From the sequence record SRR31156797_3024: DNA of 39,416 nt. The stretch is one strand, 5' to 3'. A program made the position numbers and the translations under genes. Positions 17,173 through 34,182 of this stretch are shown in pieces. The first letter of the stretch is position 1; every line of letters begins with the position of its first letter. The notes beneath the pieces were generated by a model. That model was not told where the DNA came from and did no database searches. It saw only the letters and a program-made list of their open reading frames with translations.

Positions 17173-18717
17173 TCACCTTTCGTGGTCGTTCTTACTCGGG
17201 CAGGTTGCGAGGATCTCTCTTCTTCCAGTGTCTTTTACCTCCTCTAATTTGACTTCAAAACCCCATAGGCGATGCATGTGTTTTAGTACCTCCTCGTAGC
17301 TTGGGTCTAAAGGAATTCGATCGTGTGGGACATACTGCAATGTAATTGAGCGGTCACCACGGACGTCGACGCTGAACACTTGGATGTTCGGCTCCAAGTT
17401 GCTTAAGTTGTACTGGGCTGCAAGCTTTTCTCTGATTTTTCTATAACCGGTGTCATCGTGAATGGCTGACACTTCGATGAAATTTTTCCTATCATCATCA
17501 GTAATCGAAAATAGTTTAAAGTCACGAATGACCTTGGGTGATAAATACTGACTGATGAAGCTTTCATCTTTAAAGTTATGCATCGCAAAATGCACGGCAT
17601 CTAACCAGTTAGTTCCTGCTAACTCTGGGAACCATTCGTAGTCCTCATCGGTTGGGTTTTCACACATGCGCTTAATGTCAGTGAACATCGCAAAACCTAA
17701 CGCATAGGGGTTGATACCACTAAAGTAAGGGCTGTTATACGCTGGTTGCGCCACGACACTGGTATGGCTGTGCAAAAATTCAAGAATGAATTTATCGGTC
17801 ACTAAACCTTCGTCATACAGATGATTAAGAATGGTGTAGTGCCAGAATGTCGCCCAACCTTCGTTCATTACTTGGGTTTGTTTTTGCGGGTAGAAGTATT
17901 GACTAACTTTACGAACAATACGCACGATTTCTCGTTGCCAAGGCTCGAGTAACGGCGCGTGTTTTTCTATGAAATAAAGTATGTTTTCTTGTGGCTCGCT
18001 GGGAAAGCGACGAGCAGCATCATCTTCAGTGGCTTTTTGCGGTACGGTACGCCATAAAGCATTCACTTGAGACTGTAGGTACGCTTCTCTCTCTTCCTGG
18101 CGTGCTTTTTCTTCGGCTATCGATATTTTCTCCGGACGTTTGTAACGGTCAACGCCGTAGTTCATTAACGCATGGCAAGAATCGAGTAAGCGCTCGACAT
18201 CATCGACCCCATACTTTTCTTCACATTCGGCAATGTAGTTTTTGGCGAATAGCAGGTAATCAATGATTGAGCTGGCGTCTGTCCAGGTTTGGAACAGATA
18301 GTTGCCTTTGAAGAATGAGTTGTGACCATAACTGGCATGAGCCATGACTAATGCCTGCATGGTCACAGTGTTTTCTTCCATCAAATAAGCGATACACGGG
18401 TCAGAGTTAATGACGATTTCATAGGCTAACCCCATTTGTCCGTGTTTGTAATTCTGTTCAGTGTGGATGAACTTCTTACCAAAAGACCAATGGCTATAAT
18501 TAATGGGCATACCAATACTGGAGTAGGCATCCATCATTTGTTCTGAGGTAATCACCTCAATTTGATTTTCGTATGTGTCTAGGCGATAGAACTCGGCCAC
18601 ACGCTTAATCTCTGTGTGGTACTGCTCCAGAAGATCAAATGTCCAGTCTGGACCATCAGGTAACGCTTTTGACTTCGTAGTGCGTTTTTTTGTTGGTGCT
18701 TTAGATTTTGTCGTCAT
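17173..18717 (-). CDS. ycgB: SpoVR-family protein
   Basis: HWSFGK, LAYEIVIN, HASYGHNSFFK, TQVMNEGWATFWH, NPYALG. ATG at 18717 follows a GGAG RBS. Confidence 0.93.
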   Translation of the reverse strand: MTTKSKAPTKKRTTKSKALPDGPDWTFDLLEQYHTEIKRVAEFYRLDTYENQIEVITSEQMMDAYSSIGMPINYSHWSFGKKFIHTEQNYKHGQMGLAYEIVINSDPCIAYLMEENTVTMQALVMAHASYGHNSFFKGNYLFQTWTDASSIIDYLLFAKNYIAECEEKYGVDDVERLLDSCHALMNYGVDRYKRPEKISIAEEKARQEEREAYLQSQVNALWRTVPQKATEDDAARRFPSEPQENILYFIEKHAPLLEPWQREIVRIVRKVSQYFYPQKQTQVMNEGWATFWHYTILNHLYDEGLVTDKFILEFLHSHTSVVAQPAYNSPYFSGINPYALGFAMFTDIKRMCENPTDEDYEWFPELAGTNWLDAVHFAMHNFKDESFISQYLSPKVIRDFKLFSITDDDRKNFIEVSAIHDDTGYRKIREKLAAQYNLSNLEPNIQVFSVDVRGDRSITLQYVPHDRIPLDPSYEEVLKHMHRLWGFEVKLEEVKDTGRREILATCPSKNDHER

Positions 18718-18729
18718 GCGCACTTCTCC

Positions 18730-20001
18730 CTATGCAGTTTCCTTTTGAAATAGCTCCCTAAACACAGGGAAGATATCTTCAACACTACGAATGTTCTTCA
18801 TAGCAAAGTTGGCAAAACCGGGTTGAAGCTTTTCATACTCATGCCACAAGGTTTGATGCGAACGACGCGTGATCTCTATGTAGGCATAGTATTGGCAAGC
18901 AGGTAACAGTTTTTCAGTGAGGAGTTCTTTACAGCGCGGAGAATCGTCTGCCCAGTTATCACCATCTGATGCCTGAGCACCATAAATGTTCCACTCTCCT
19001 AACGGATAGCGTTCTTTGACGATTTCATCCATGAGCTTTAAGGCACTCGAAACAATCGTACCACCCGTTTCTTGAGAGTAGAAAAACTCTTGCTCATCGA
19101 CTTCTTTCGCTTGTGTATGGTGGCGTATGAAGACGACTTCGACGTTCTGGTAAGTACGATTTAGGAACAGATACAGCAGAACATAAAAGCGTTTGGCGAT
19201 GTCTTTGGTGGCTTGGTCCATGGAGCCTGATACATCCATCAGACAAAACATTACAGCCTGACTCGACGGGATAGGGCGCTTTTCGTAATTTTTAAAGCGT
19301 AAATCGAAAGTATCGATGAACGGAACACTCTCAATTTTTGCTCTCAGTTCTTCTATCTCCTGTTTGATACGTTTTTCTTCCAGCAGTTGTGCTGGCTCGG
19401 CGGCTTTAATTCGTTCTAGCTCACCTTCGAGCTCTTTCATTAAACGACGCTTGTTGGCTGTCATCGCTGTCCGACGAGCAAGAGACTGTTGTAACGAACG
19501 AACGATGGCGATGTTGGATGCAGACCCCGCGGTTTGATAACCCGCGCGATGCGTTTTCCATTCCGTGATTTTGTTTATCTGATTTTTTTCGAGGTTGGGT
19601 AGCTCTAAATCTTCAAACAGAATATCCAAATACTCATCTTTCGAGATTTGGAATACAAATTCATCTTCACCTTCACCATCTGGGCTAGCGTCACCTTCAC
19701 CAGCTCCGCCACCTTGACCACCGCCTTTAGGGCGCTCTATTTTGTCGCCGCGGATAAATTGATCGTTACCCGGGTGGACGCGCTCCCGCATGCCCCCTTT
19801 ACCCTGATGGAAAATTGGCTCTTTGATATCTTTATTTGGAATCGAAACATCTTCACCCGTCTCGGTATTGGTAATTGAGCGACGGTTAACAGCGTCGGCG
19901 ACGGATTCTTTGATTTGCTCTTTGTAACGGCGTAGGAAGCGCTGCCTGTTTACAGCACTTTTATTCTTACCGTTTAATCGTCTATCGATAAATTGCGGCA
20001 T
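18730..20001 (-). CDS. yeaH: YeaH/YhbH (DUF444) protein with VWA/MIDAS motif
   Basis: [19 protein letters not shown]-terminus, Gly-rich linker, MDVSGSM (DxSxS), GGT and SDGDN. Confidence 0.93.
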
Positions 20002-20144
20002 GAGTCCCCCTGTTTACATCACGCTATATCCTTTTAGCTAAATGCTTGGACAGTGCCAGCTCTCAATCGCACTTTGCTGAGCAGCGATTGAGAAGCTGTG
20101 TGCCTTTGCCTAAAACACTATTAAGGCATAGTTCGTTGGGTTCA

Positions 20145-22079
20145 TTAAGAGGATTTGCGAACGCGCAAATACCACTCAGACAATAGTCTCACTTGTTTCT
20201 CTGTATAACCTTTCTCCATCATGCGAGCGACAAAGTTGTCGTGTTTCTTCTGATCTTCAGAAGAGGTTTTCGCATTGAAGGAAATGACAGGAAGCAACTC
20301 TTCAGTATTCGAGAACATTTTTTTCTCGATGACCGTACGCAATTTTTCGTAGCTGGTCCAAGCTGGATTACTACCGTTATTGTTTGCACGTGCGCGCAAT
20401 ACAAAGTTAACGATTTCATTTCGGAAATCTTTCGGATTACTAATACCAGCGGTTTTTTCGATTTTCTCCAATTCTCCATTGAGTGAAGCACGGTCAAACA
20501 GCTGACCGGTTTCTGGGTCACGGTACTCCTGATCTTGAATCCAGAAGTCCGCATAAGTGACGTAACGGTCGAAGATATTCTGGCCGTATTCAGAGTAAGA
20601 TTCTAAGTAAGCTGTTTGAATTTCTTTACCGATGAACTCTACGTAGCGCGGTACTAAGTACCCTTTGACAAATTCAAGGTAGCGATCAGCGGTTTCTTGT
20701 GGGAACTGCTCTCGTTCTACCTGCTGTTCAATTACATAGAACAGGTGTACTGGGTTTGCAGAGACTTCCACCTGATCAAAGTTGAATACACGTGACAGAA
20801 TTTTGAACGCGAAACGGGTAGAAAGTCCGGACATACCCTCGTCGACCCCAGCATAATCACGGTACTCTTGATAGCTTTTGGCTTTTGGATCCGTGTCTTT
20901 CAATGTCTCGCCATCATAGACGCGCATTTTAGAGAACAGAGAGGAGTTTTCCGGTATTTTTAAGCGCGACAGTACACTAAATTGAGCGAGCAGTTCTAAC
21001 GTACTTGGTGCACAAGGCGCTTGTGATAGTTCACTGTGCTCCAGCAGTTTCTCGTAGATTCTGACTTCCTCAGAAACACGTAAACAGTAAGGCACTTTAA
21101 CAATGTAAACACGGTCTAAGAACGCTTCGTTGTTTTTGTTGTTGCGGAAAGTTTGCCACTCGGACTCGTTAGAGTGAGCAAGTATCATTCCGTCAAAAGG
21201 TAATGCCGACAGGCCTTCAGTACCGTTATAGTTGCCTTCTTGAGTTGCAGTCAGTAGAGGATGCAGCACTTTAATCGGTGCTTTAAACATCTCAACGAAC
21301 TCCATCAAACCCTGGTTAGCACGACATAATGCGCCAGAATAGCTGTAGGCGTCTGGGTCATCCTGTGAAAAGTGTTCTAATTGGCGAATATCAACTTTAC
21401 CTACTAGCGACGAAATGTCCTGGTTGTTTTCATCACCGGGTTCGGTTTTAGCCACCGCCACTTGATCAAGAATCGATGGGCGAACTTTTACCACTTTAAA
21501 TTTGGTGATGTCACCGCCAAACTCATGCAGGCGTTTTGCCGCCCATGGAGACATAATCGATTTAACGTAACGTTTTTCTATGCCGTATTCTTGTTTGAGT
21601 AGATCGCCGTCTTCATTGACATCAAACAGGCAGAATGGATGGTCGTTCACTGGGCTACGTTGCCCATTGGCGGATAGCACATAGATGGGCATTTGTTGCA
21701 TTAGTGCTTTTAATTTTTCCGCCAGTGATGATTTACCACCACCCACAGGGCCAAGTAAATATAAAATCTGTTTGCGCTCTTCAAGACCTTGAGCTGCATG
21801 CTTTAGATAGGAAACGATTTGTTCAATCGAATCTTCCATTCCATAGAAGTCTTTGAACGTTTCGTAGCGCGAGATAACTCGGTTAGAAAAAATCCGACTT
21901 AAGCGTGGATCTTTGGATGTATCAATAAGTTCAGGTTCACCAATCGCGAGCAACAGACGCTCAGCGGCATTGGCGTATGCGCTTTTGTCGTCTTTACAAA
22001 GGTTTAAAAACTCTTGAATAGTTAGCTCTTCATCCTTGGCTGCTTCATAGCGTGCCTGAAAGTGGTCAAAAATACTCAT
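20145..22079 (-). CDS. yeaG: PrkA-family AAA+ ATPase / serine protein kinase YeaG
   Basis: 644 aa; LLGPVGGGKS Walker A, EPGDENNQD, EFVEMFK, AHSNESE. Confidence 0.96.
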   Translation of the reverse strand: MSIFDHFQARYEAAKDEELTIQEFLNLCKDDKSAYANAAERLLLAIGEPELIDTSKDPRLSRIFSNRVISRYETFKDFYGMEDSIEQIVSYLKHAAQGLEERKQILYLLGPVGGGKSSLAEKLKALMQQMPIYVLSANGQRSPVNDHPFCLFDVNEDGDLLKQEYGIEKRYVKSIMSPWAAKRLHEFGGDITKFKVVKVRPSILDQVAVAKTEPGDENNQDISSLVGKVDIRQLEHFSQDDPDAYSYSGALCRANQGLMEFVEMFKAPIKVLHPLLTATQEGNYNGTEGLSALPFDGMILAHSNESEWQTFRNNKNNEAFLDRVYIVKVPYCLRVSEEVRIYEKLLEHSELSQAPCAPSTLELLAQFSVLSRLKIPENSSLFSKMRVYDGETLKDTDPKAKSYQEYRDYAGVDEGMSGLSTRFAFKILSRVFNFDQVEVSANPVHLFYVIEQQVEREQFPQETADRYLEFVKGYLVPRYVEFIGKEIQTAYLESYSEYGQNIFDRYVTYADFWIQDQEYRDPETGQLFDRASLNGELEKIEKTAGISNPKDFRNEIVNFVLRARANNNGSNPAWTSYEKLRTVIEKKMFSNTEELLPVISFNAKTSSEDQKKHDNFVARMMEKGYTEKQVRLLSEWYLRVRKSS

Positions 22080-23833: not shown

Positions 23834-24499
23834 CTATTTTTTGTGATGGTGATTATAAATATAATCCCTGTCGGAGAAGACTCGCAGCCATTCCGGCTTA
23901 AACACCGACAGAATTGCTAGCGACATTCCGTTCAATAGGCCTTCTGGAAATGCCAGCAAAGGAACAAATATCAGGTAGTTATCAAGAATGGTTTTCCAGT
24001 CATGCTGCCCTAGATTCAGTTGATAGCCAGCGTTGATCAGTAGATGAAGGCTTCCAGTTACCCCGCCGTTAAAGAATCCAGCGATAAAGATGAATACAAA
24101 AATATTTCGAGGAAGATAGTGGTAACTGATTGAAAACACAACATATGAAATAACAATGGGTAACAGGCAAGACAACAGCAGGTATTCCGGCAGACCAAAC
24201 AGCGAGATTTTACCCACGATCACCAGAGCCAATGAGACGGGAATGGTGAGGATAAATGAACAACGCCAACCAAACATCATGGTTAAAGTGGTCAATGCGA
24301 GGAAGTGGATCGTCAGTCCTTCCTTGACGCTCGCTTGCGCTGACCAAAGTAACAACAAAGCGAACAGAACACTGTAGGTTAAGTGTTGAAAAGATTTCTC
24401 GCTTTTGAACTTTGGCCAAAAGGCGGTTTTTACGTCTCTAAAAGCCACGATGGTAAAAATCATGACTATCATTAAAGAAGCCAGTTCCTGTAGCTGCAC
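23834..24499 (-). CDS. Orphan energy-coupling-factor (CbiM-like) permease / membrane protein
   Basis: About 6-7 TM segments; GLTIHFL, PRNIFVFIFIAGF, FPEGLLNG..L..FKPEW motifs. GTG start with AAGGA RBS. Confidence 0.7.
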   Translation of the reverse strand: MQLQELASLMIVMIFTIVAFRDVKTAFWPKFKSEKSFQHLTYSVLFALLLLWSAQASVKEGLTIHFLALTTLTMMFGWRCSFILTIPVSLALVIVGKISLFGLPEYLLLSCLLPIVISYVVFSISYHYLPRNIFVFIFIAGFFNGGVTGSLHLLINAGYQLNLGQHDWKTILDNYLIFVPLLAFPEGLLNGMSLAILSVFKPEWLRVFSDRDYIYNHHHKK

Positions 24500-24583: not shown

Positions 24584-25324
24584 TTAGTATTTTACGTTTG
24601 AGTGATATTGCTCAAGAACCGATACAATTCTATCCATGGTTTCTTTGCTTGGTGGTTGTACACCTTCTAAAGGATACTCTTCACCCATTGCTTCCCACTT
24701 GTGTGCACCTAACTTATGGTACGGCAACAGCTCGATTTTCTCGATGTTATCCATATCCTTGATGAATTGTCCCAATTGATGTGCCGACTCATCGTCGTCG
24801 GTATAGCCGGGAACAATCACATAACGTAACCACGTTGTTTGGCCAATTTTGTGTAGGTAGCGAGCAAAATCAAGCGTGCGTTTATTAGACACACCCACCA
24901 AATCTTGGTGAATCAGATCGTTGATCTGTTTGATATCAAGCATCACTAAATCTGAGACTTCGAGCACTTCATCAATGACCGGAGTAAACTTGCGAATGTA
25001 GCCATTGGTGTCTAGGCAAGTATGGATACCTTCGTCTTTTGCCGCGCGGAAAAAGTCTCTGACAAACTCTGGTTGAAGCATGGCTTCGCCGCCTGAACAC
25101 GTCACACCACCACCAGAAGCGTTCATAAAGTGGCGATAGGACTTAGCTTCGTTGATGATCTCTTCGACCGTGACAACTTTACCTTCATGGGTATCCCAAG
25201 TATCGCGATTGTGGCAGTACTTACAACGGAATAAGCAACCTTGAAGAAATACGATAAAGCGAATCCCAGGGCCATCAACCGTTCCACAAGATTCGAATGA
25301 GTGAATTCGACCAGAAGTAGACAT
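24584..25324 (-). CDS. pflA: Pyruvate formate-lyase activating enzyme (radical SAM)
   Basis: [19 protein letters not shown] (CxxxCxxC), [12 protein letters not shown]. Confidence 0.97.
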
Positions 25325-25548
25325 GTGTTGCTCTCAATTGTGTAATTTAGATGTCATTTTATTACAAATAGTAAGGATTAAATAGGATTTCCTTATTTTA
25401 TTCAGGCTTAGAATAATTCGTTTAAAAAAACATCGAACTCTGTGATGATGAGTGATATAACAAAAAATATTATTAATAAAAGTGTAAACATAACACTTGG
25501 GTTTTTCTTGATGTCAATAGTCACAGGGTAGTGACGAGGAAGATAAAC

Positions 25549-27429
25549 ATGGATGTACTAAAACTATCTCAAAAACAAAAAATCACACTATTTATTGTCG
25601 TTCTTTGTATTGGCTTTATTAGCCTTGGGCTTTATACCGCAACGAGTTTGTCCGGTATGGGGACCCAATATAAACAAAGTTCGACGATCACTTCGGGTGC
25701 ATTAGCTATGCACTCTACTCAAGCCGATTTATTGTCACTGGCCTCAGAAAAAGAGAGTCTAACCGCTGACCAAGTGGCTCAAGCAACCGCAACCCTAGAG
25801 GATTTGATTCAGAATGTTCAAGCGGATGTTTCGTTTCTTGAGCAAATAAATTTTGCTGCTGAAGCAGAACAACTACAGCAAGTCACAACCCAGTTTGCCC
25901 AATCATTGAAGCCTTGGATGACCTTAAACTCTGAGCTGGGTTTTAATGTTGAGGAAGGCAAGCTGGGAGAGTTGAAGACTCTCGCTACAACGATTGAAAA
26001 GAAAATCGAAGAGACGGGGATGGTGACCCTCAATTCAGATTTTCAAGCGATGATTAAAGCTCAGCAAAACTACCTGCTGCAACCTAGCGAACAGAATTTA
26101 AAATTGTTTAACCGGGCAATGTTCGGCTTTATAAACATGTCAAAAACTTATGCGATGCTTGATCTTTATGAAAAAGAGGTTGAGCAGTTTAAAGCGACTT
26201 TCTTACGTGTCAGTGAGCTTTCTCAGCAAGTAAAAGAGCAAGAACAATTACTTACTGCAAGTGAAATACAAGCGAAGAATTTGATTCAACAACTGTCGCT
26301 GCAAATAGAGCAGATGAGTGAAGACTATCAGTTAGCAGCAGAGCAGTCTGGTGTGCAGACTCAGTGGTCGGTTTTAGTGGCTTGTGCGGTACTGGCGATA
26401 ATCACCATTTCAATCTTTGTTATGTTAAGCATTTCTCTTACTCGTTCTTTAACTCAGACCAAAACCGTGATGGAACGCTTATCTCAAGGGGATTTGTCAC
26501 AACGTATGGTCATTTCAAATAATCCGAATGATGAGTTTAACCAGCTTGCGCTAGCGATTAATCAAAGTTGTGAACGTTTGGGGGAATTGGTGAAGGGCGT
26601 ACAGCAGAGTAGTGAAGCCCTTTCTGGTGACGCAGCTCAGCTTAACAACGGAATTGATGATTTAGTGAATGGCCAGTCGGATGTGTTAGGTCAGACTCAG
26701 TTACTTGCGTCAGCGACGGAAGAGGTGAGTGTTACAACCCATGAAGTTTCGAATTCATTAACTTTTGTCGCTGATGTGAGTAAGTCTTCGACGGAAGCGG
26801 CAGAGAATGGCGCAAAAATCATTGCTTCAGCGATTGGGTCTTTGGAAGAAGTGGGTGGCATTCTTAGTTCCGCTGCTGGAAACATCCAGCAACTAGAACA
26901 AGCGTCGAGTAAGATCGATTCTGTCATGGATATCATTAACAGTATCGCGGAACAAACCAATTTACTTGCTCTAAACGCCGCAATTGAAGCGGCTCGCGCG
27001 GGTGAGCAGGGCAGAGGTTTCGCCGTGGTTGCTGATGAAGTTCGTAGCTTAGCAGTACGTACTGTAAGCGCGGTTACTGAGATTTCGGGTACGATCGAAA
27101 CGATGAAAAAAGAGAGCTCTGAAGTGATTGGCAAATTCAGCCAGTCGGAACAGACGATGCTCGTTGGGCAAGAGCGTGGTCATGAAGCGATGCAGGCTCT
27201 GTCACAGATTACAGAGAAAGCGGGTGAAGCGGCACACCAAACAGAAGTGATTGTTGATTCAATCAAAGAGCTTGCGACGACGAGTCAATCAATGGCAGAC
27301 AACATGGCGCAAATATCCGTTGCGATGAAAGAGCTTGAAGGGAACAACGAGCATTTACGTTCGATCAGTCACGTAGTTGACCAGCGCTCTTCTGAACTCA
27401 ACACCGATTGTCAGAAATTTAAACTTTAA
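25549..27429 (+). CDS. Methyl-accepting chemotaxis protein
   Basis: Two TM segments, helical periplasmic domain, HAMP (GDLSQR..DEFNQLA), [37 protein letters not shown] at 25549 follows GAGGA. Confidence 0.95.
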
Positions 27430-27450
27430 TCGTTAAGTTTGACTGAGATA

Positions 27451-27480
27451 TAAGCCCTGCAAGTCAATCTGCAGGGCTTA
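27451..27480. terminator. Bidirectional terminator (MCP / lpxR)
   Basis: TAAGCCCTGCA-AGTCAATC-TGCAGGGCTTA. Confidence 0.8.
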
Positions 27481-27487
27481 TTGGTAA

Positions 27488-28474
27488 TTAAAAGAAGGCG
27501 TAAAAAGAGACGCCTCCCGTACCGTGGATCGTCGTTGAGTTTTGTTTGTATTCTGATGTCGTCGCGGTGGAGGTAAATGTAAATCCAAAATGACGGCTAT
27601 ACCATGCGGCCCCGACTACAGCGGTGGCTTGCCAAGGCTCAAGAGTCACAGCGTAATAACTGGCTGGATACTCTAGATCATCCAGAGGTCGCTCTCCCTC
27701 AATCGTAATATCATTGAAGCGATATCGTCCCTCTACCCCTCCAAATACAAACCAACCGTAGCCTGAATCACCGATCATTCCTGCTTTAAATGGGTTTTCG
27801 ACAGAAATCTGCGCACTACCAAAGTTACCAGCGAGATCTTGTCCCCAACGAACCATAAACCCTGTCGCTGCATCGCTGCGGTAGTTACCTATATTGACTT
27901 CAGAAATATTGGAAATCTCAAAATCCGTGCTCAGGGTGAAACGACGGCGTACCAGATTAAAGTGAGATAAATAACCGACACTACCCACTACCTTGTCTTC
28001 AATCTGATAGGCCCAGCCATTAGGGTCATCAGACTTGGTTATGGAATGGACGATTTGTTGTGCTTCTTCTGACATCGCGTTTTCGCCCGTAGTGCCTATG
28101 GTTAAGTTGAAGCGTTGGGCTTGTTGAGGGTGTAGGCTGATGTAGTTGAACTCACTGTGCAGATAGCCCGCATAAGGTCTTTCATTAGGTTGTGGGGTAT
28201 CTAAGGTTATATCAGAGGGTGTCCACATTTTGTGTCCAATACTGACTTCCCATTTATCTAGGCTAGTCGCCCCCCATGCTGAAAGGCTCAGTGGTCGAGT
28301 CAACCAATTCGGTCTAATTGCACCAGAGGTATAAGAAAGAAAAATACCGCTTGTGTAGTCCTGATCAACACCATAAATCCCGTCGTTATCGACATTTAAT
28401 GCAAGGGTAGGATGTTGAGAGCCGAACGCGGGTAAACTTAGCAGCAGTAAAGGTAAAGTTCGGAGTAAATTCAT
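27488..28474 (-). CDS. lpxR: Lipid A 3'-O-deacylase LpxR-family outer-membrane protein
   Basis: Signal peptide, DND..DQDYTSG, GHKMWTP, ERPYAGYL, GWAYQI and a terminal Phe. ATG at 28474 preferred. Confidence 0.85.
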   Translation of the reverse strand: MNLLRTLPLLLLSLPAFGSQHPTLALNVDNDGIYGVDQDYTSGIFLSYTSGAIRPNWLTRPLSLSAWGATSLDKWEVSIGHKMWTPSDITLDTPQPNERPYAGYLHSEFNYISLHPQQAQRFNLTIGTTGENAMSEEAQQIVHSITKSDDPNGWAYQIEDKVVGSVGYLSHFNLVRRRFTLSTDFEISNISEVNIGNYRSDAATGFMVRWGQDLAGNFGSAQISVENPFKAGMIGDSGYGWFVFGGVEGRYRFNDITIEGERPLDDLEYPASYYAVTLEPWQATAVVGAAWYSRHFGFTFTSTATTSEYKQNSTTIHGTGGVSFYAFF

Positions 28475-28610
28475 AATGATACAACTAAAGGACAACAGAG
28501 CGCTGATGTTACAGTATTCGCACTAATATGACGAGTTGCCACGTTGTAAGGTGAGAGGTATAGGACAAATGCATTCGCAGCTAATTATCTGAATGGTAAA
28601 ACTAAATAAC

Positions 28611-28636
28611 AAAAGCCCCCGCATTAGCGAGGGCTT
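28611..28636 (-). terminator. Intrinsic terminator of pflB
   Basis: The minus strand reads AAGCCCTCGC-TAAT-GCGGGGGCTTTTGTT. Confidence 0.8.
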
Positions 28637-28661
28637 GGTAGCTCATAATTTAAGCAAAGTC

Positions 28662-30941
28662 TTACAGTGACTCTGTGAATGTACGAGCGATAACGTCAGC
28701 TTGCTGTTCTGTAGTCAGAGAGTTGAAACGTACAGCGTATCCAGATACACGGATAGTTAGCTGAGGATATTTCTCTGGGTGTTTAACTGCGTCTTCTAGA
28801 GTTTCGCGGTTAAGAACGTTAACGTTTAGGTGTTGACCACCCTCTAGTTTGCCAGCTTCGTGGTGGAAGTAACCATCCATTAGACCCGCAAGGTTAGCAC
28901 GTTGGCTAGTTTCTTCTTTACCTAGTGCGTTTGGCACGATAGAGAATGTGTAAGAGATACCATCTTGAGCATCAGCAAACGGTAGTTTCGCTACTGAAGT
29001 CAATGATGCTACTGCACCTTTCTCATCACGGCCGTGCATTGGGTTTGCACCTGGAGCAAATGGAGTACCTGCGCGGCGACCATCTGGAGTGTTACCAGTT
29101 TTCTTACCGTACACAACGTTTGAAGTGATAGTAAGGATAGACTGAGTAGGAACAGCGTCACGGTAAGTCTTAAGCTCACGGATCTTGTTCATAAATACAG
29201 TCACTAGTTCACAAGCGATGTCATCAACACGTGGGTCGTTGTTACCGAATTTAGGGTAGTCGCCTTCGATTTCAAAGTCGATTGCTAGACCATCTTCGTC
29301 ACGAATAGGTTTAACTTTAGCGAACTTGATTGCTGATAGTGAGTCAGCTGCAACAGATAGACCAGCGATACCACAAGCCATAGTACGTTTAACGTCACGG
29401 TCGTGTAAAGCCATTAGAGATGCTTCGTAGCTGTACTTGTCGTGCATGAAGTGGATGCTGTTTAGTGCAGTCACGTACTGCTTAGCAAGCCAATCCATGA
29501 AGTGGTCCATTTTTTCCCACAACTCGTTGTAATCTAGGTATTCACCTTCGATCTTGTCCATCTTAGGACCAACCTGAATCTTCAGCTTCTCATCGATACC
29601 GCCGTTGATTGTGTAAAGCATAGTTTTAGCAAGGTTAGCGCGAGCACCGAAGAACTGCATTTGCTTACCAACAACCATTGGAGATACACAACAAGCGATA
29701 GCATAGTCGTCAGAGTTCATGTCTGGACGCATTAGATCGTCGTTTTCGTACTGGATAGAAGAAGTATCGATAGATACTTTTGCACAGAAACGTTTGAAAC
29801 CATCTGGAAGTGCTTCAGACCAAAGAACAGTGATGTTTGGCTCTGGAGAAGGACCCATAGTGTATAGGCTGTTTAGGAAACGGAAGTTAGAACGCGTTAC
29901 TAGCGTACGACCGTCAAGACCCATACCACCCATAGATTCTGTTGCCCAGATTGGGTCGCCAGAGAATAGCTCATCGTACTCAGGAGTACGTAGGAAACGA
30001 ACCATACGTAGTTTCATTACGAAGTGGTCGATCATTTCTTGAGCTTGAGCTTCAGTTAGCTTGCCTGCAGCGATATCACGCTCGATGTACACGTCTAGGA
30101 ACGTAGAAGTACGGCCTAGAGACATTGCAGCACCGTTTTGAGACTTAACAGCAGCTAGGTAGCCGAAGTAAGTCCATTGGACAGCTTCTTGTGCAGTTTG
30201 AGCTGGACCAGAAATATCGAAACCGTATTTCGCAGCCATTTGTTTGATTTGACCAAGAGCACGGTGTTGCTCAGCAATTTCTTCACGAAGTTGCATAGTC
30301 ATGTGAAGGTCTTCACCGTTCTCAAAACGCTCTTGTAGAGACGTGAATTGAGCCAGTTTGTCCTTCATTAGGAAGTCGATACCGTAAAGTGCAACACGAC
30401 GGTAGTCACCGATGATACGACCACGGCCGTACGCATCTGGAAGACCAGTTAGTACACCAGACTTACGACATGCAAGGATGTCAGGAGTGTAGATATCGAA
30501 AACACCAGCGTTGTGCGTTTTACGGTATTCTGTGTAGATTTTTTTAACTTGTGGGTCTAATTCGCGGTCGTAAGCTTTGCAAGAACCTTCAACCATACGG
30601 ATACCACCGTTAGGGATGATTGCACGCTTAAGAGGCGCATCAGTTTGAAGACCAACAATAGTTTCAAGATCTTTTTCGATGTAGCCTGCATCGTGAGCAG
30701 TGATGGTAGAGATAACAGAAGTATCAAAATCTACAGGAGCGTGAGTAGAGTTCTCCTGTTTAATGCCTTCCATTACTTTAGCCCAAAGCGTGTTAGTCGC
30801 TTCAGTTCCTTCAGAAACTAGGAAAGATTCGTCACCCTCGTACGGAGTGTAGTTCTTTTGAATGAAATCACGAACGTTTACTTCGTTTTGCCACTCACCT
30901 GCAGCAAAACCTTCCCAAGCTTTAGCAAATTGCTCTGCCAT
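28662..30941 (-). CDS. pflB: Pyruvate formate-lyase (formate C-acetyltransferase)
   Basis: IACCVS catalytic Cys pair and TIRVSGYAV glycyl-radical motif; 759 aa; AAGGTAGGT RBS. Confidence 0.98.
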
Positions 30942-31121
30942 GACATACCTACCTTTTTAGTAGAAAAAACACGTACTGATTCGCCGTTGAGCCAGCTATC
31001 TCTTATCTCTAAGAGAGCAGTACACTCTAGATTAATAACAATATGTATAGTGCATAATCCCAGATTATTACTATAGATATTGTTACTTGTTCTTACAGCC
31101 CAATGTCGATTTGATGAAATT

Positions 31122-31163
31122 ACCTTACACTAAAAAAAATTTATAAAACTTAAACTAAATCAA
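31122..31163 (-). promoter_or_regulatory. Candidate FNR class II promoter of pflB
   Basis: Minus-strand TTGATTTAGTTTAA (31163-31150; 8/10 match to TTGAT-N4-ATCAA) and -10 TAAGGT (31127-31122). The spacing puts the box centre at -41.5. Confidence 0.6.
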
Positions 31164-31204
31164 TAAAAGTTGAAAAAATGAAAATAAATGAGTCAATAAC
31201 AAAT

Positions 31205-31227
31205 GGGGTAGCGACATGCGCTACCCC
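31205..31227 (-). terminator. Intrinsic terminator downstream of the DUF3360 gene
   Basis: GGGGTAGCG-ACATG-CGCTACCCC; the minus-strand tail is ATTTGTTATT (imperfect U-tract). Confidence 0.75.
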
Positions 31228-31247
31228 TTGCAATTACTGGCGTAAGC

Positions 31248-32795
31248 TTATAACCAAGCTTTCAAACCATATTGTGCTTCTAGCATACCAACCGCTAGCA
31301 TAGCAACTAGACAGATAATAAACACGGTTACAGGGATAATTATTTTATCCATGAATGATAGACGAGCTGCACGCTCTTTGTCACCAATCAGACCGTTGTT
31401 GTCTAAGAACATGGTTAGTGCCCAAGCTAGAACAGGGTTTGCTACGATTGAAGCGAAGATACAAATACCCGCTGCTTGTGAATCTTTAGTATCGCGAACC
31501 ATCTGCATACCCGCTTCAAGTAGAGGTAAAGATACACCTACTAGTAGAGCAACACGCATTACTGGTGGCCATACCGCAACGTCCATTGGGAAACCAAGAA
31601 TCGCCACAATGATACATAGAGAGCCAAGAAGAATTGCACCCGCCGGAATAGGACGTTTAGCAATCGCTGCAGGGATCATGTAAGTACCCCAAGATGAAGT
31701 AATGTTACCACCACCGACAGCTGTACCCACCATTTGACGGAAAGAACACATGGTCATTGTGTCATCAACGTCCATCAGTACTTTCTCAGTTTTTCTCGGG
31801 TAGTTCATTTCTTGGAAAATACGGTGACCTAGGAAGTCAGGTGACCACATCGCTACTGCAAGAATCGCGAATGGTAAAGATGCAATAAAGTGCTCTACGG
31901 TAGGTAGGCCTAGCATCCAACCTTGTTCAGTGCTACCCCACCAGTATACTGGGTTTAGGTTTGGTAGACCTGTTTTCGTTTCAAATACGATGTCGAAGCC
32001 TGCACCAAATAGCAGCGCAACCGCAAGACCTGTAAATGCACAAACCGGAATCGCTAACCAGCGCATATTGATTTTTGCAAGGAATGCGTAAATACCAACC
32101 GTGATACCCAGAACGACGAAACCAACATAGCCCATGCTACCAGCAGCAACATCAGCAGATTCAAGACCGACTGCCCATGATTGAATGGAGTTGATTTGGC
32201 TGATAGTACCGGTTAGACCCAAGAAGATAAGTAAACCACCGGCAGTACCTTCAGAAGTGAGGTTGACGAGTTTCGAACCGCCTTTAAAAAAGGAGAGTAG
32301 AAGGCCAAAAATACCGATAAGAATAGCGAGAGCTAATGGGTGAGCACCTGCAAGAGCGATAGTACCGATCAATGGAATCATCGGACCGTGGTTACCCGCA
32401 AGGTTTGCTTTCGGGTTAAATACCCCGGAGGCTAAAATACAGAATAGTAGTGCAGGAATTAACATTTCTACACGTGCTACTTCAATTGCAAATTCTTTTG
32501 TTAGATGAACGTGATCCCAAGCTTGAGTTAAGCCTTCCGCCCAAGACATCATAACTGCTGAGTACATCGCGATAATGCCGATAGTACCAGCTAGAGCAGG
32601 AACAAAATCTTCAAGTTCGAATCGGAAATCGCGACCTGGCAAGTTCAAACCAAAGCGGCGTGGTTTCATGATTTGTAGTTCATGATCTAAGTAATCTGAA
32701 CGGCTGTCGAACTCAGATGCTGGACGATGAAGCTCACTGTAGCTCTTAGTCTCGATATCTGAATCAGAATGCGCTTTATTCACTGCTTCTGACAT
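31248..32795 (-). CDS. DUF3360-family polytopic inner-membrane protein (putative transporter)
   Basis: 515 aa from ATG at 32795 (GAGGA RBS); more than 10 hydrophobic segments. SYSELHRPASEF..R..YL.HEL.IM.P N-terminus recalled as DUF3360; directly upstream of pflB. Confidence 0.8.
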   Translation of the reverse strand: MSEAVNKAHSDSDIETKSYSELHRPASEFDSRSDYLDHELQIMKPRRFGLNLPGRDFRFELEDFVPALAGTIGIIAMYSAVMMSWAEGLTQAWDHVHLTKEFAIEVARVEMLIPALLFCILASGVFNPKANLAGNHGPMIPLIGTIALAGAHPLALAILIGIFGLLLSFFKGGSKLVNLTSEGTAGGLLIFLGLTGTISQINSIQSWAVGLESADVAAGSMGYVGFVVLGITVGIYAFLAKINMRWLAIPVCAFTGLAVALLFGAGFDIVFETKTGLPNLNPVYWWGSTEQGWMLGLPTVEHFIASLPFAILAVAMWSPDFLGHRIFQEMNYPRKTEKVLMDVDDTMTMCSFRQMVGTAVGGGNITSSWGTYMIPAAIAKRPIPAGAILLGSLCIIVAILGFPMDVAVWPPVMRVALLVGVSLPLLEAGMQMVRDTKDSQAAGICIFASIVANPVLAWALTMFLDNNGLIGDKERAARLSFMDKIIIPVTVFIICLVAMLAVGMLEAQYGLKAWL

Positions 32796-32960
32796 AGATT
32801 CCTCATTTATATAAAGTTTATTAATTCTGAAATGAATTCTGCTTAATGTCCGCAAAAGCGAAAGTTTCGGCTGAATATGTAACACGTTTCTCTTGTGCTT
32901 TATAGCATCATAGCCAACGAAATAATAATGGGCATTAGAATCGCCTTATATTTAGTGGCG

Positions 32961-33002
32961 AGTTTAACGTGCTAACCTTTTGTTGTGATTGATCTTGATC
33001 AC
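32961..33002 (-). promoter_or_regulatory. Candidate FNR class II promoter of the DUF3360 gene
   Basis: TTGATCTTGATCAC at 32989-33002 (9/10 match to the FNR consensus) and minus-strand -10 TAAACT (32966-32961); box centre at -41.5. Confidence 0.7.
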
Positions 33003-33264
33003 TTTAGTTATGGAAATGAAATAAAACTACATCCGTGTAATGAAATCAGACACATAGCGTATTTAATTCTGAAATTTTTTTTCAGTGCGTGATGTTTATG
33101 ACGAGTTTATATACGAGTCTAGTTTAGTATTTGACCATGCATAAAGTGATAAAAGAAAAGATGGCTTTAAGTCTTGTTTTTATGATTTTGTTAAATCGAT
33201 TGCCGATAAAAGGGTTGGCTAGGAATGTCTTTATATGCGTACTTTGAAGAAGAAATAGCCAAAT

Positions 33265-33303
33265 TATGAATTTATACTCACATAATATAATTATTTATTT
33301 CAA
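33265..33303 (+). promoter_or_regulatory. Tandem ARG boxes (ArgR operator)
   Basis: TATGAATTTATACTCACA (33265-33282), a 3-bp spacer, then a weaker TATAATTATTTATTTCAA (33286-33303); consensus WNTGAATAWWWATTCANW. Confidence 0.6.
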
Positions 33304-33323
33304 TTTTGCAGGTTAATAATTTG

Positions 33324-33352
33324 TTGCATGTTGCGCGCGTGAGTGCTAATTT
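33324..33352 (+). promoter_or_regulatory. Candidate sigma70 promoter of the amino-acid ABC operon
   Basis: TTGCAT-N17-TAATTT with an extended -10 TG. Confidence 0.45.
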
Positions 33353-33411
33353 GTATCGGAAATTGAGCTGGAATGCTCTGCAGTATCATAAAATACAGGG
33401 AGTTAAAGCGC

Positions 33412-34182
33412 ATGAATGAAGTACCAGCGCTCGATATAAAAGAACTGCACAAAACATTTGGTCAGAATGAAGTACTGAAAGGCATCTCACTTCAAGCCCA
33501 TAAGGGTGACGTGATCTCGATTATCGGTTCTTCAGGTTCTGGCAAAAGTACCTTTCTTAGATGCATCAATTTATTAGAGACCCCAACAGAGGGCGAAATT
33601 TGGGTTAATGGTGAATTAATTCAGATGAAGAAAAACCGTCAAGGTATCGCTCTTCCTGCGAATGAGAAACAAGTTCAGCGTATACGTTCGCGCTTAGCCA
33701 TGGTTTTTCAGGGATTTAATCTCTGGTCACATATGACAGTGTTAGAAAATGTCATCGAAGCACCCGTGCATGTCCTGGGCATTCCTAAGGCAGAAGCAAT
33801 CCAAAAAGCAGAAGCACTACTCCAGAAAGTGGGGCTCTATGAGCGAAAAGATTACTATCCAGGCCATTTGTCTGGCGGTCAGCAACAACGTGCCGCAATC
33901 GCTCGGGCTCTTGCAGTAGACCCAGAGGTCTTGTTATTTGATGAACCAACATCAGCACTCGATCCAGAGCTTGTTGGTGAAGTGTTAGGGGTTATGCGCT
34001 CACTCGCTGAAGAAGGCCGAACCATGCTGGTGGTGACACACGAAATGGCATTTGCGCGCGATGTTTCAAATCATGTCATGTTCTTACATCAAGGATTAGT
34101 TGAAGAGCAGGGCGATCCTAAGAAACTGTTTAGTAACCCAGATTCTGACCGACTTAAGCAGTTTATCTCTTCAATTTACTAA
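33412..34182 (+). CDS. Polar amino-acid ABC transporter ATP-binding protein (HisP/AotP type)
   Basis: [52 protein letters not shown] at 33412 follows AGGGAG. Confidence 0.92.
   Translation: MNEVPALDIKELHKTFGQNEVLKGISLQAHKGDVISIIGSSGSGKSTFLRCINLLETPTEGEIWVNGELIQMKKNRQGIALPANEKQVQRIRSRLAMVFQGFNLWSHMTVLENVIEAPVHVLGIPKAEAIQKAEALLQKVGLYERKDYYPGHLSGGQQQRAAIARALAVDPEVLLFDEPTSALDPELVGEVLGVMRSLAEEGRTMLVVTHEMAFARDVSNHVMFLHQGLVEEQGDPKKLFSNPDSDRLKQFISSIY

Follow-up and report, generated by a model that had tools for sequence, protein, structure and literature searches.

A stretch of DNA of 39,416 nucleotides from sequence record SRR31156797_3024 (the whole stretch is called the window here) carries, on its minus strand, a gene for a 515-amino-acid membrane protein of Pfam family DUF3360 (PF11840; positions 31248–32795) directly upstream of pflB, the gene for pyruvate formate-lyase (PFL; 28662–30941, minus strand). 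The passage of pyruvate, formate and acetate through the membrane of fermenting cells is understood only in part even in Escherichia coli, and hardly in Vibrio. In E. coli, the gene upstream of pflB is that of the formate channel, focA, in an FNR-controlled focA–pflB unit. An earlier reading of the window (the original prediction), made by a model from the sequence letters, proposed that the DUF3360 protein occupies the focA position and might move a small anion linked to PFL or act as a partner of PflB. Here we follow up this proposal by computational analysis and find that DUF3360 is a well-founded candidate for an undescribed FNR-controlled carboxylate carrier, forming a new family within a known fold.

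The open reading frame (ORF) around the DUF3360 gene extends over 31248–32885 (minus strand), and its likely start is the ATG at 32795, which stands behind GAGGAA. The 515-residue product matches PF11840 over residues 11–515 and profile positions 2–503 of 503 (E 9.1e-291; 965.3 bits against a cut-off of 26.2); a scan with NCBIfam models gave it no name. Its closest relatives, at 99% identity in a Vibrio metagenome-assembled genome and 97% in V. mytili and V. xiamenensis, identify the window as Vibrio DNA. The next gene downstream, on the same strand after a gap of 306 bp, is pflB (TIGR01255, 1324 bits against a cut-off of 994), an arrangement that the original prediction had described correctly; pflA, for the PFL activase, follows on the same strand at 24584–25324 (NF008356, 475 bits against 375). 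No paper naming DUF3360 or PF11840 turned up in our literature search, which left most subscription journals outside its coverage, and to that extent the earlier statement that the family has no assigned function still stands.

Conserved linkage to pfl genes

We compared three sets of loci: 80 Vibrio-like loci among 525 genome loci from a genome scan; 20 non-Vibrio loci, all at least 72% identical, taken for diversity as the lowest-scoring of 79 high-band PF11840 matches in a sample of the order; and 60 paralogue loci from the lower score band, three of them from a sample of the class, with 58 below 60% identity and two at 68%. Among the Vibrio-like loci, pflB lies directly downstream and co-oriented in 76 of 80, at a distance of 263–360 bp, and the other four contigs stop less than 410 bp past the DUF3360 gene, so that the linkage holds in all 76 testable loci. 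The non-Vibrio set, which by best named match includes loci from Alginatibacterium, Neiella, Aliivibrio, Agarivorans-like and Psychromonas-like organisms, has pflB within 6 kb in 19 of 20 loci, in three architectures: adjacent and co-oriented (7), co-oriented with an ACT-domain gene in between (7) and divergent (5). In four of the seven loci with the ACT-domain gene, focA also lies between DUF3360 and pflB. The flanks of the pair vary by lineage (an art ABC operon, a flavodoxin/XerD/DsbC group or an exonuclease III-like gene) while the pair itself stays together. In 6 of the 20 non-Vibrio loci a co-oriented flavodoxin gene stands upstream, no more than two genes away; in E. coli, the PFL activase receives its electrons from flavodoxin. 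None of the 58 paralogues below 60% identity lies near pflB, and of the two intermediates at 68%, one is pflB-linked (L151) and the other is not (L152).

The pflB-linked proteins form one clade in a quick maximum-likelihood tree, with a Shimodaira–Hasegawa-like approximate likelihood-ratio (SH-aLRT) value of 100 for 20 rows (19 linked proteins and the unlinked L135) and of 96 for the 22 rows that result when L151 and L152 are added, in agreement with the identity-based grouping of orthologues. The tree leaves out L121 (G485:C1:173679–175175), an orthologue with an in-frame TAG and a longest ORF of 433 amino acids that may be a pseudogene or a sequencing error.

In an even sample of 400 genomes of the class, four carry PF11840; in the order, 105 of 401 sampled genomes do, and many genomes have two or three copies, which belong to separate score bands. 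PflB is present in 78 of the 79 genomes that have the DUF3360 orthologue (the high-band copy), the exception being a 2.2-Mb assembly, and in 10 of the 26 genomes that have paralogues only. The family is small and closely knit: among 1.84 billion cluster representatives there were only 148 matches to DUF3360 with E ≤ 0.001, few of them full length, and the best 120 matches among 5.8 billion clusters are 79–95% identical to the window protein. Their named sources are Vibrio, Aliivibrio, Photobacterium, Enterovibrio, Thaumasiovibrio, Psychromonas, Moritella, Agarivorans, Echinimonas, Neiella, Alginatibacterium, Ferrimonas and Reinekea, and conservation of the orthologue is extreme, at about 80% identity across genera.

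Proximity to pflB–pflA that is conserved across lineages, together with this co-occurrence, makes DUF3360 a member of the pfl gene cluster. The gene-neighbourhood survey that the original prediction had proposed thus finds the linkage outside close relatives: pflB is near in 19 of the 20 non-Vibrio loci, and 78 of the 79 genomes with the orthologue have PflB; because all the pflB-linked loci belong to one order of the GTDB taxonomy, shared ancestry explains part of it.

A protein of 164–178 amino acids with two ACT domains is encoded immediately downstream of DUF3360 in nine non-Vibrio loci (for example L133:5411–5917, plus strand), and in seven of these its gene separates DUF3360 from focA or pflB. 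The protein may bind a small molecule and regulate the pfl locus.

A candidate FNR-controlled promoter

The original prediction had noted a near-consensus FNR box upstream of the DUF3360 gene, and the comparison of loci bears this out. The box, GTGATCAAGATCAA (32989–33002, minus strand), agrees with TTGAT-N4-ATCAA at 9 of 10 consensus positions, at a distance of 207 bp upstream of the ATG. Of 100 orthologue loci, 96 (79 of 80 in Vibrio, 17 of 20 elsewhere) have a box with no more than one mismatch in the 400 bp upstream; of 60 paralogue loci 6 do, and of 2000 shuffles of the 400-bp stretch 92 do. GTGATCAAGATCAA is the same in all 12 aligned Vibrio species, inside an island of invariant bases that also includes a candidate −10 hexamer, TAAACT (32961–32966, minus strand), whose five fixed positions, written TAnACT, do not vary among the 12 species. 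TAnACT starts 22 bases past the box, and from the centre of the box to where the hexamer ends there are 35 bases; with a transcription start about 7 nt past TAAACT, the box would be centred near −41.5, the geometry of a class II FNR promoter. Upstream of the box lies a further conserved element, TGTAG-N-TTTCA (33016–33031, minus strand), with invariant TGTAG and TTTCA columns. A scan with the sigma-70 consensus gave no match at the candidate promoter, and the number of its matches was not above that in shuffles.

A terminator-like hairpin that the original prediction had not noted (31205–31227, minus strand; 9-bp stem with 7 G–C pairs and a T-rich tail) begins 21 nt past the stop codon of DUF3360, and because it lies between the two genes, DUF3360 and pflB are probably separate transcription units; a second terminator-like hairpin follows pflB (28613–28636, minus strand). 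Upstream of pflB there is also a weaker FNR-like element, TTGATTTAGTTTAA (31150–31163, minus strand), with two mismatches, and the identical 14-mer recurs in 64 of 74 Vibrio DUF3360–pflB intergenic regions. Given the hairpin after DUF3360 and this conserved element of pflB's own, the two genes look like neighbouring FNR-controlled units and not like one obligatory operon. No Rfam family matched positions 28000–33600 at E up to 0.1. Assembled metatranscriptome contigs, from three runs of one seawater study and a fourth, wastewater run whose RNA label is a guess, include sequences at least 90% alike that cover parts of DUF3360 and pflB, and one 888-nt contig (X3) spans 30940–31827 across the intergenic hairpin; we give these contigs no weight, because assembled sequences prove neither transcription, nor its level, nor a single transcript, and DNA carry-over is possible.

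The 16 bases around the ribosome-binding site and start codon, ATATGAGGAATCTATG (32793–32808, minus strand), are likewise invariant in the 12 aligned Vibrio species. This invariance appears to exceed what coding or a Shine–Dalgarno sequence would need, and the site may be one at which the small RNA VqmR pairs. By gene order only, the V. cholerae orthologue is vc1865: VC1866 is named as PFL in a published study (PMC2714520), and its primer for VC1866 matches the gene downstream of DUF3360 with three mismatches. Pulse expression of the quorum-sensing small RNA VqmR repressed vc1865 9.6-fold (PMC6451090, Table 1), which puts it among the mRNAs that VqmR represses most strongly. The gene also appears in a riboflavin/iron transcriptome table (PMC5816637), and a chromatin-immunoprecipitation peak of CRP is recorded in the VC1864<>VC1865 spacer of V. 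cholerae (PMC6050953). Upstream of DUF3360 in the window we found no CRP site better than three mismatches, so that the V. cholerae peak cannot be transferred to it.

Predicted fold and key residues

To relate DUF3360 to known transporters we used an AlphaFold2 model built on an alignment of 28 family members (A1). The model (predicted local distance difference test (pLDDT) 84.5, predicted template-modelling score (pTM) 0.84) has 14 predicted transmembrane (TM) segments and a conserved, cytoplasmic N-terminal domain of about 60 residues (pLDDT 78–90). In a profile search of the Protein Data Bank with E up to 10, one solved protein matched: PurT of Colwellia psychrerythraea, a purine/H+ symporter of the NAT/NCS2 family (7tak; E 1.5e-8, 37 bits). 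The same structure led the Foldseek results (E 1e-7, template-modelling scores 0.58/0.65, probability 1.00), followed by UraA, SLC26 proteins and AE1, with 107 chains at E ≤ 0.001, so that the transporter fold for which the original prediction had suggested looking is found. VIA-align ranked PurT first as well (Z 21.7, root-mean-square deviation 4.8, 390 residues aligned), then UraA (5xls; 21.5, 4.0, 375), prestin (7sun; 19.6), SLC26Dg (19.2), UapA (5i6c; 18.6), and AE1 and SVCT1 (16–17). Language-model features placed the protein nearest to the named clusters of MOT1, Xan_ur_permease and BenE carriers. A fold of the 7+7 inverted-repeat elevator type, as in UraA, SLC26 and SLC4, is thus well supported by the model.

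The original prediction had likened two segments broken by glycine and proline to TM3 and TM10 of UraA- and SLC23/SLC26-type carriers, and in the model both form a strand followed by a half-helix. The TM3 motif ANLAGNHGPMIPL (residues 130–142; 32370–32408, minus strand) comprises a strand at 133–134 and part of a half-helix at 137–148, and the TM10 motif AVGGGNITSSWGTY (residues 359–372; 31680–31721, minus strand) a strand at 367–368 and the beginning of a half-helix at 370–378, as assigned by DSSP. The crossing of TM3 and TM10 is the place of substrate binding in the elevator fold (PMC10438392). Within these motifs, W369 is kept in alignments across the entire DUF3360 family, and N135 is specific to the pflB-linked clade, the paralogues having threonine. 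In TM8 (MWSPDFLGH), D320 (codon at 31836–31838, minus strand) aligns with Asp276 of PurT in the profile alignment to 7tak and is nearly invariant in alignment A1 and invariant in alignment A3; by alignment, DUF3360 has the acidic TM8 residue of the NAT/NCS2 type. In PurT, Asp276 was shown to bind the substrate and couple H+ (PMC10438392), and by analogy D320 could provide ion coupling in DUF3360.

Within this fold DUF3360 is a separate family, because the Pfam models of the known families, including PF00860 (Xan_ur_permease) and PF00916, gave no match at E up to 5 (PF00860 also none in six distant homologues), and because the chain ends at residue 515, 13 residues after TM14, with no STAS domain. 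PurT shares with it the 14 TM segments, the TM3/TM10 crossing and the aligned TM8 aspartate. The two proteins are, however, only about 17% identical and differ in the residues around TM3 and TM10; DUF3360 has the additional N-terminal domain, and its contexts are those of fermentation and carboxylates rather than purine salvage. UraA, UapA and SVCT of the NAT (SLC23) family have the same fold and gate-and-core elevator architecture (Z 21.5, 18.6 and about 17), in contrast to the lack of any sequence-level match. The SLC26/SulP proteins (prestin, SLC26Dg, SLC26A3/A6/A9 and AtSULTR4;1; Z 17–19.6), a group of anion carriers that includes BicA, bind small anions at the helix ends of TM3 and TM10 but, unlike DUF3360, are matched by PF00916 and have a STAS domain. 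The known carriers of the substrate class proposed below, BtsT/CstA, ActP/MctC of the SSF family and SatP of the AceTr family, have other folds and none is related to DUF3360 by sequence, although SatP and ActP/MctC-like genes adjoin its paralogues.

Relationship to FocA

Like focA in E. coli, DUF3360 stands upstream of pflB, has an FNR-type box and is linked to PFL. The two proteins differ in fold and family: the DUF3360 protein has no match to the FNT models PF01226 and TIGR04060. As stated in the original prediction, the window holds no FNT gene, with a best E of 0.39 in a tblastn search with Vibrio FocA and no PF01226 in Pfam scans of the window ORFs. Each of three Vibrio genomes (the 99%-identical relative, G001, and two others) has three FNT genes. 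In G001 one of them is a focA on its own (TIGR04060, 384.7 bits, cut-off 290.1), whose product shares 55% identity with a FocA that another genus encodes beside pflB; the others are a FocA–CBS fusion and an FNT gene adjoining nitrite reductase. True FocA genes outside the window locus score 385–405 bits. At 5 of the 21 pflB-linked loci of the order sample (L126, L128, L129, L139 and L151), focA shares the pfl locus with DUF3360. From FocA elsewhere in the relative's genome and focA beside DUF3360 at some pfl loci it therefore follows that DUF3360 exists in addition to FocA and does not replace it; the gene does stand at the focA position, but the idea of substitution falls.

The fusion proteins join an FNT domain of the FocA type to a C-terminal CBS domain (483–492 amino acids; TIGR04060, 371 bits) and are encoded next to a LysR regulator gene (L201:4380–5831, minus strand, G001:C3; also L084 and L085). 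They may be ligand-gated formate channels.

Paralogues, distant relatives and substrate class

The genomic contexts of the paralogues bear on the substrate. SatP adjoins six paralogue loci (NF038013, 275 bits against a cut-off of 50). In one clade, 12 of 12 members have, divergent from the paralogue, a gene for an 858-residue sCache_2–PAS–DUF294 protein, the Cache part of which resembles the monocarboxylate sensor MctS in a partial match of 81 bits, far below the model's cut-off. At two loci the paralogue is preceded by an SSF symporter most like MctC or ActP, with scores below the cut-offs. Because these three contexts agree independently, and because the orthologue is linked to PFL, small monocarboxylates are suggested as the substrate class.

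Two positions within the binding motifs set the groups apart: asparagine at 135 and threonine at 366 in the pflB-linked clade, against threonine and alanine in the paralogues linked to SatP or Cache proteins; the remaining paralogues have threonine at 135 and serine or threonine at 366. It is tempting to speculate that the more polar pair N135/T366 would suit pyruvate or formate better than acetate. As candidate substrates we place pyruvate and formate about level, followed by acetate or lactate and then by bicarbonate.

The sCache_2–PAS proteins (850–864 residues) carry two DUF294 nucleotidyltransferase domains and occur at L140–L150 and L199 (for example L145:3009–5585, minus strand).

A more distant group, found in metagenomes only, is 30–38% identical to the window protein and has no counterpart of its N-terminal domain. 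Of 35 loci (L207–L239 contain the clusters; examples are L218:1–7308, L221 and L229), 30 were analysed. They share a strongly conserved gene cluster of another kind than the pfl locus: DUF4914 (about 625 residues) lies nearby in 19, purE in 14, MpsC in 13 and purK in 7, mostly co-oriented. The TM3 and TM10 motifs of this group, PPGTLAPLIP and GGAQTAAxWRSF, differ from those of the Vibrio protein. We found no names for these homologues, and no paper mentioning DUF4914 in the same literature search. The cluster could be an inorganic-carbon or a purine module, and it may be a sign that the DUF3360 family as a whole handles very small oxyanions. Isolated contexts, a 2-oxoacid:ferredoxin oxidoreductase (L206) and a 2-hydroxyacid dehydrogenase with an electron-transfer flavoprotein (L213, L216), were not counted as support.

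Proposed role and alternatives

Taken together, these observations lead us to propose that the DUF3360 protein at the pfl locus is an FNR-induced, ion-coupled carrier of a C1–C3 carboxylate at the PFL node, a reading to which we give an even chance. In this model the protein would be a secondary carrier of the inner membrane, of the 7+7 inverted-repeat elevator type, transcribed when oxygen is lacking from its own promoter of the class II-like FNR kind. The substrate would be bound by the mobile core domain, between the N-termini of the TM3 and TM10 half-helices, with D320 of TM8 coupling transport to H+ or Na+, and a small carboxylate would thereby be moved across the membrane where PFL acts. 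Our first guess is pyruvate, taken up to feed PFL, with formate close behind and acetate or lactate next. What the analysis shows is the predicted fold, the family membership, the conserved linkage to pflB–pflA and the conserved FNR-type box; anaerobic induction, ion coupling, substrate and direction of transport are inferred from these. If DUF3360 does carry carboxylates, it would add a new family and fold to the monocarboxylate transporters, explain Vibrio pfl loci that have no focA, link quorum sensing to the control of fermentation flux, and give a function to a domain present in 105 of the 401 sampled genomes of the order.

Several points weigh against this proposal. The literature search turned up no transport, expression or mutant data for any member of the DUF3360 family, and the closest solved relative, PurT, carries purines and not carboxylates. 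The purE, purK, MpsC and DUF4914 context of the distant relatives points to bicarbonate or a purine, not to a fermentation acid. FocA, present elsewhere, would make a role in formate transport redundant. The orthologue is absent from 186 of 264 sampled PflB-positive genomes, and the orthologue L135 has no pflB within 6 kb, though its genome has PflB. For V. campbellii, BtsU is reported as the sole pyruvate transporter (PMC10653868); a CstA-family gene, which by our guess may encode BtsU, is present once in each of the three Vibrio genomes. The neighbourhood evidence is guilt by association, from loci of a single order; locus genes were called as longest ORFs, with one representative of each neighbour cluster scanned with Pfam; and the cut-offs for orthologues (72% identity for loci, about 910 Pfam bits for genomes) were set after the data had been seen.

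A broader version of the proposal, which we advance tentatively, would make DUF3360 the founder of a hitherto undescribed family: elevator carriers, coupled to ions, whose substrates are the smallest carboxylates and form a graded C1–C3 oxyanion series. The FNR-controlled orthologue would then set the flux of pyruvate or formate at the PFL node in the Vibrionaceae and in marine Gammaproteobacteria close to them, with VqmR shutting it off in V. cholerae; the paralogues would handle acids of the acetate type, together with SatP, ActP and Cache sensors; the distant branch would feed bicarbonate to PurK; and specificity would be set by a few residues, in TM3 (asparagine or threonine at 135) and in TM10 (threonine or alanine at 366).

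The leading idea of the original prediction was narrower: DUF3360 would be a carrier of formate in particular and do the job of FocA at the pfl locus, ion-coupled in place of a channel. Its position, that of focA in all 76 testable Vibrio loci and in a window without an FNT gene, and an FNR box like that of the E. coli focA–pflB unit both fit this idea. So does the fold, which carries small oxyanions and matches 8opq; SLC26A6 exchanges chloride for formate. Even the distant relatives can be read in its favour, since they adjoin the gene for the bicarbonate-using PurK and bicarbonate is shaped like formate. We nevertheless consider it unlikely, because the 99%-identical relative already has a FocA above the TIGR04060 cut-off and a FocA–CBS fusion elsewhere in its genome, because focA shares the locus with DUF3360 in the five cases listed above, and because the contexts of the paralogues point to C2–C3 acids.

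Improbable, in our view, is a carrier of bicarbonate or another inorganic anion comparable to BicA, SLC4 and SLC26, which would supply anaerobic carboxylations and be linked to pfl only indirectly. The main basis for it, and for the nucleobase carrier considered next, is the company of the distant homologues, DUF4914, purE, MpsC and purK (in 19, 14, 13 and 7 of the 30 loci); PurK works on bicarbonate, and the name MpsC comes from a system that has been reported to transport inorganic carbon. The nearest named language-model clusters are moreover those of MOT1 sulfate/molybdate carriers, and SLC26 and AE1 are among the structural neighbours. Those homologues are, however, only 30–38% identical to the window protein and differ in the TM3 and TM10 motifs, and their purE–purK neighbours would suit a purine substrate just as well. 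CO2 is neither a product nor a substrate of PFL, and the paralogues keep company with carboxylate transporters and sensors.

We regard as somewhat more improbable still a NAT-like carrier of a nucleobase or other non-carboxylate, whose adjacency to pflB would be inherited synteny of no functional meaning. The only solved relative detectable by sequence is indeed a purine/H+ symporter, with the TM8 aspartate conserved; purE and purK adjoin the distant relatives; and the pflB-linked loci all come from one order. Yet proximity to pflB survived three rearrangements while the flanks changed, the FNR box is specific to the pflB-linked clade, PflB accompanies the orthologue in 78 of 79 genomes, and a search relaxed to E 5 gave no match to PF00860.

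A membrane sensor (transceptor) or an anchor on which PflB docks, as the N-terminus of FocA is reported to do in E. coli, is very improbable: the confidently modelled cytoplasmic N-terminal domain and the extreme conservation across genera would suit such a partner, but that domain is equally conserved in the paralogues, 16 of 26 paralogue-only genomes have no PflB, the clade-specific insertions of the pflB-linked proteins fall in loops that the predicted 14-TM topology places in the periplasm, and the core transport motifs and the TM8 aspartate are intact, so that the PflB-partner role suggested in the original prediction lacks specific support.

Neighbouring genes

Between pflB and pflA the window has two inserted genes (25531–28495): lpxR, of the lipid A 3′-O-deacylase family (27488–28495, minus strand), and a gene for a methyl-accepting chemotaxis protein (25531–27429, plus strand), both assigned by Pfam. 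In other Vibrio loci lpxR alone fills this gap, and in non-Vibrio loci pflA follows pflB directly. Just downstream of pflA lies a gene for a CbiM-like membrane protein of 221 residues (23834–24499, minus strand; weak Pfam match), and a similar gene for 212–214 residues (cluster c24) follows pflA in L127, L132, L134 and L137.

On the other side, the divergent upstream neighbour of DUF3360 is an ABC transporter operon of the arginine type (Pfam). Between this operon and DUF3360 a palindrome, TGAAA-N5-TTTCA, is conserved at about 33070–33090 (minus strand; columns 48–65 of alignment A4); it resembles an ARG box and presumably serves the arginine transporter operon. Further away, at 17173–22079 (minus strand), the window holds a triad of genes for a PrkA kinase, a YeaH-like DUF444 protein and a SpoVR-like protein, which is ordinary and unrelated to the DUF3360 finding.

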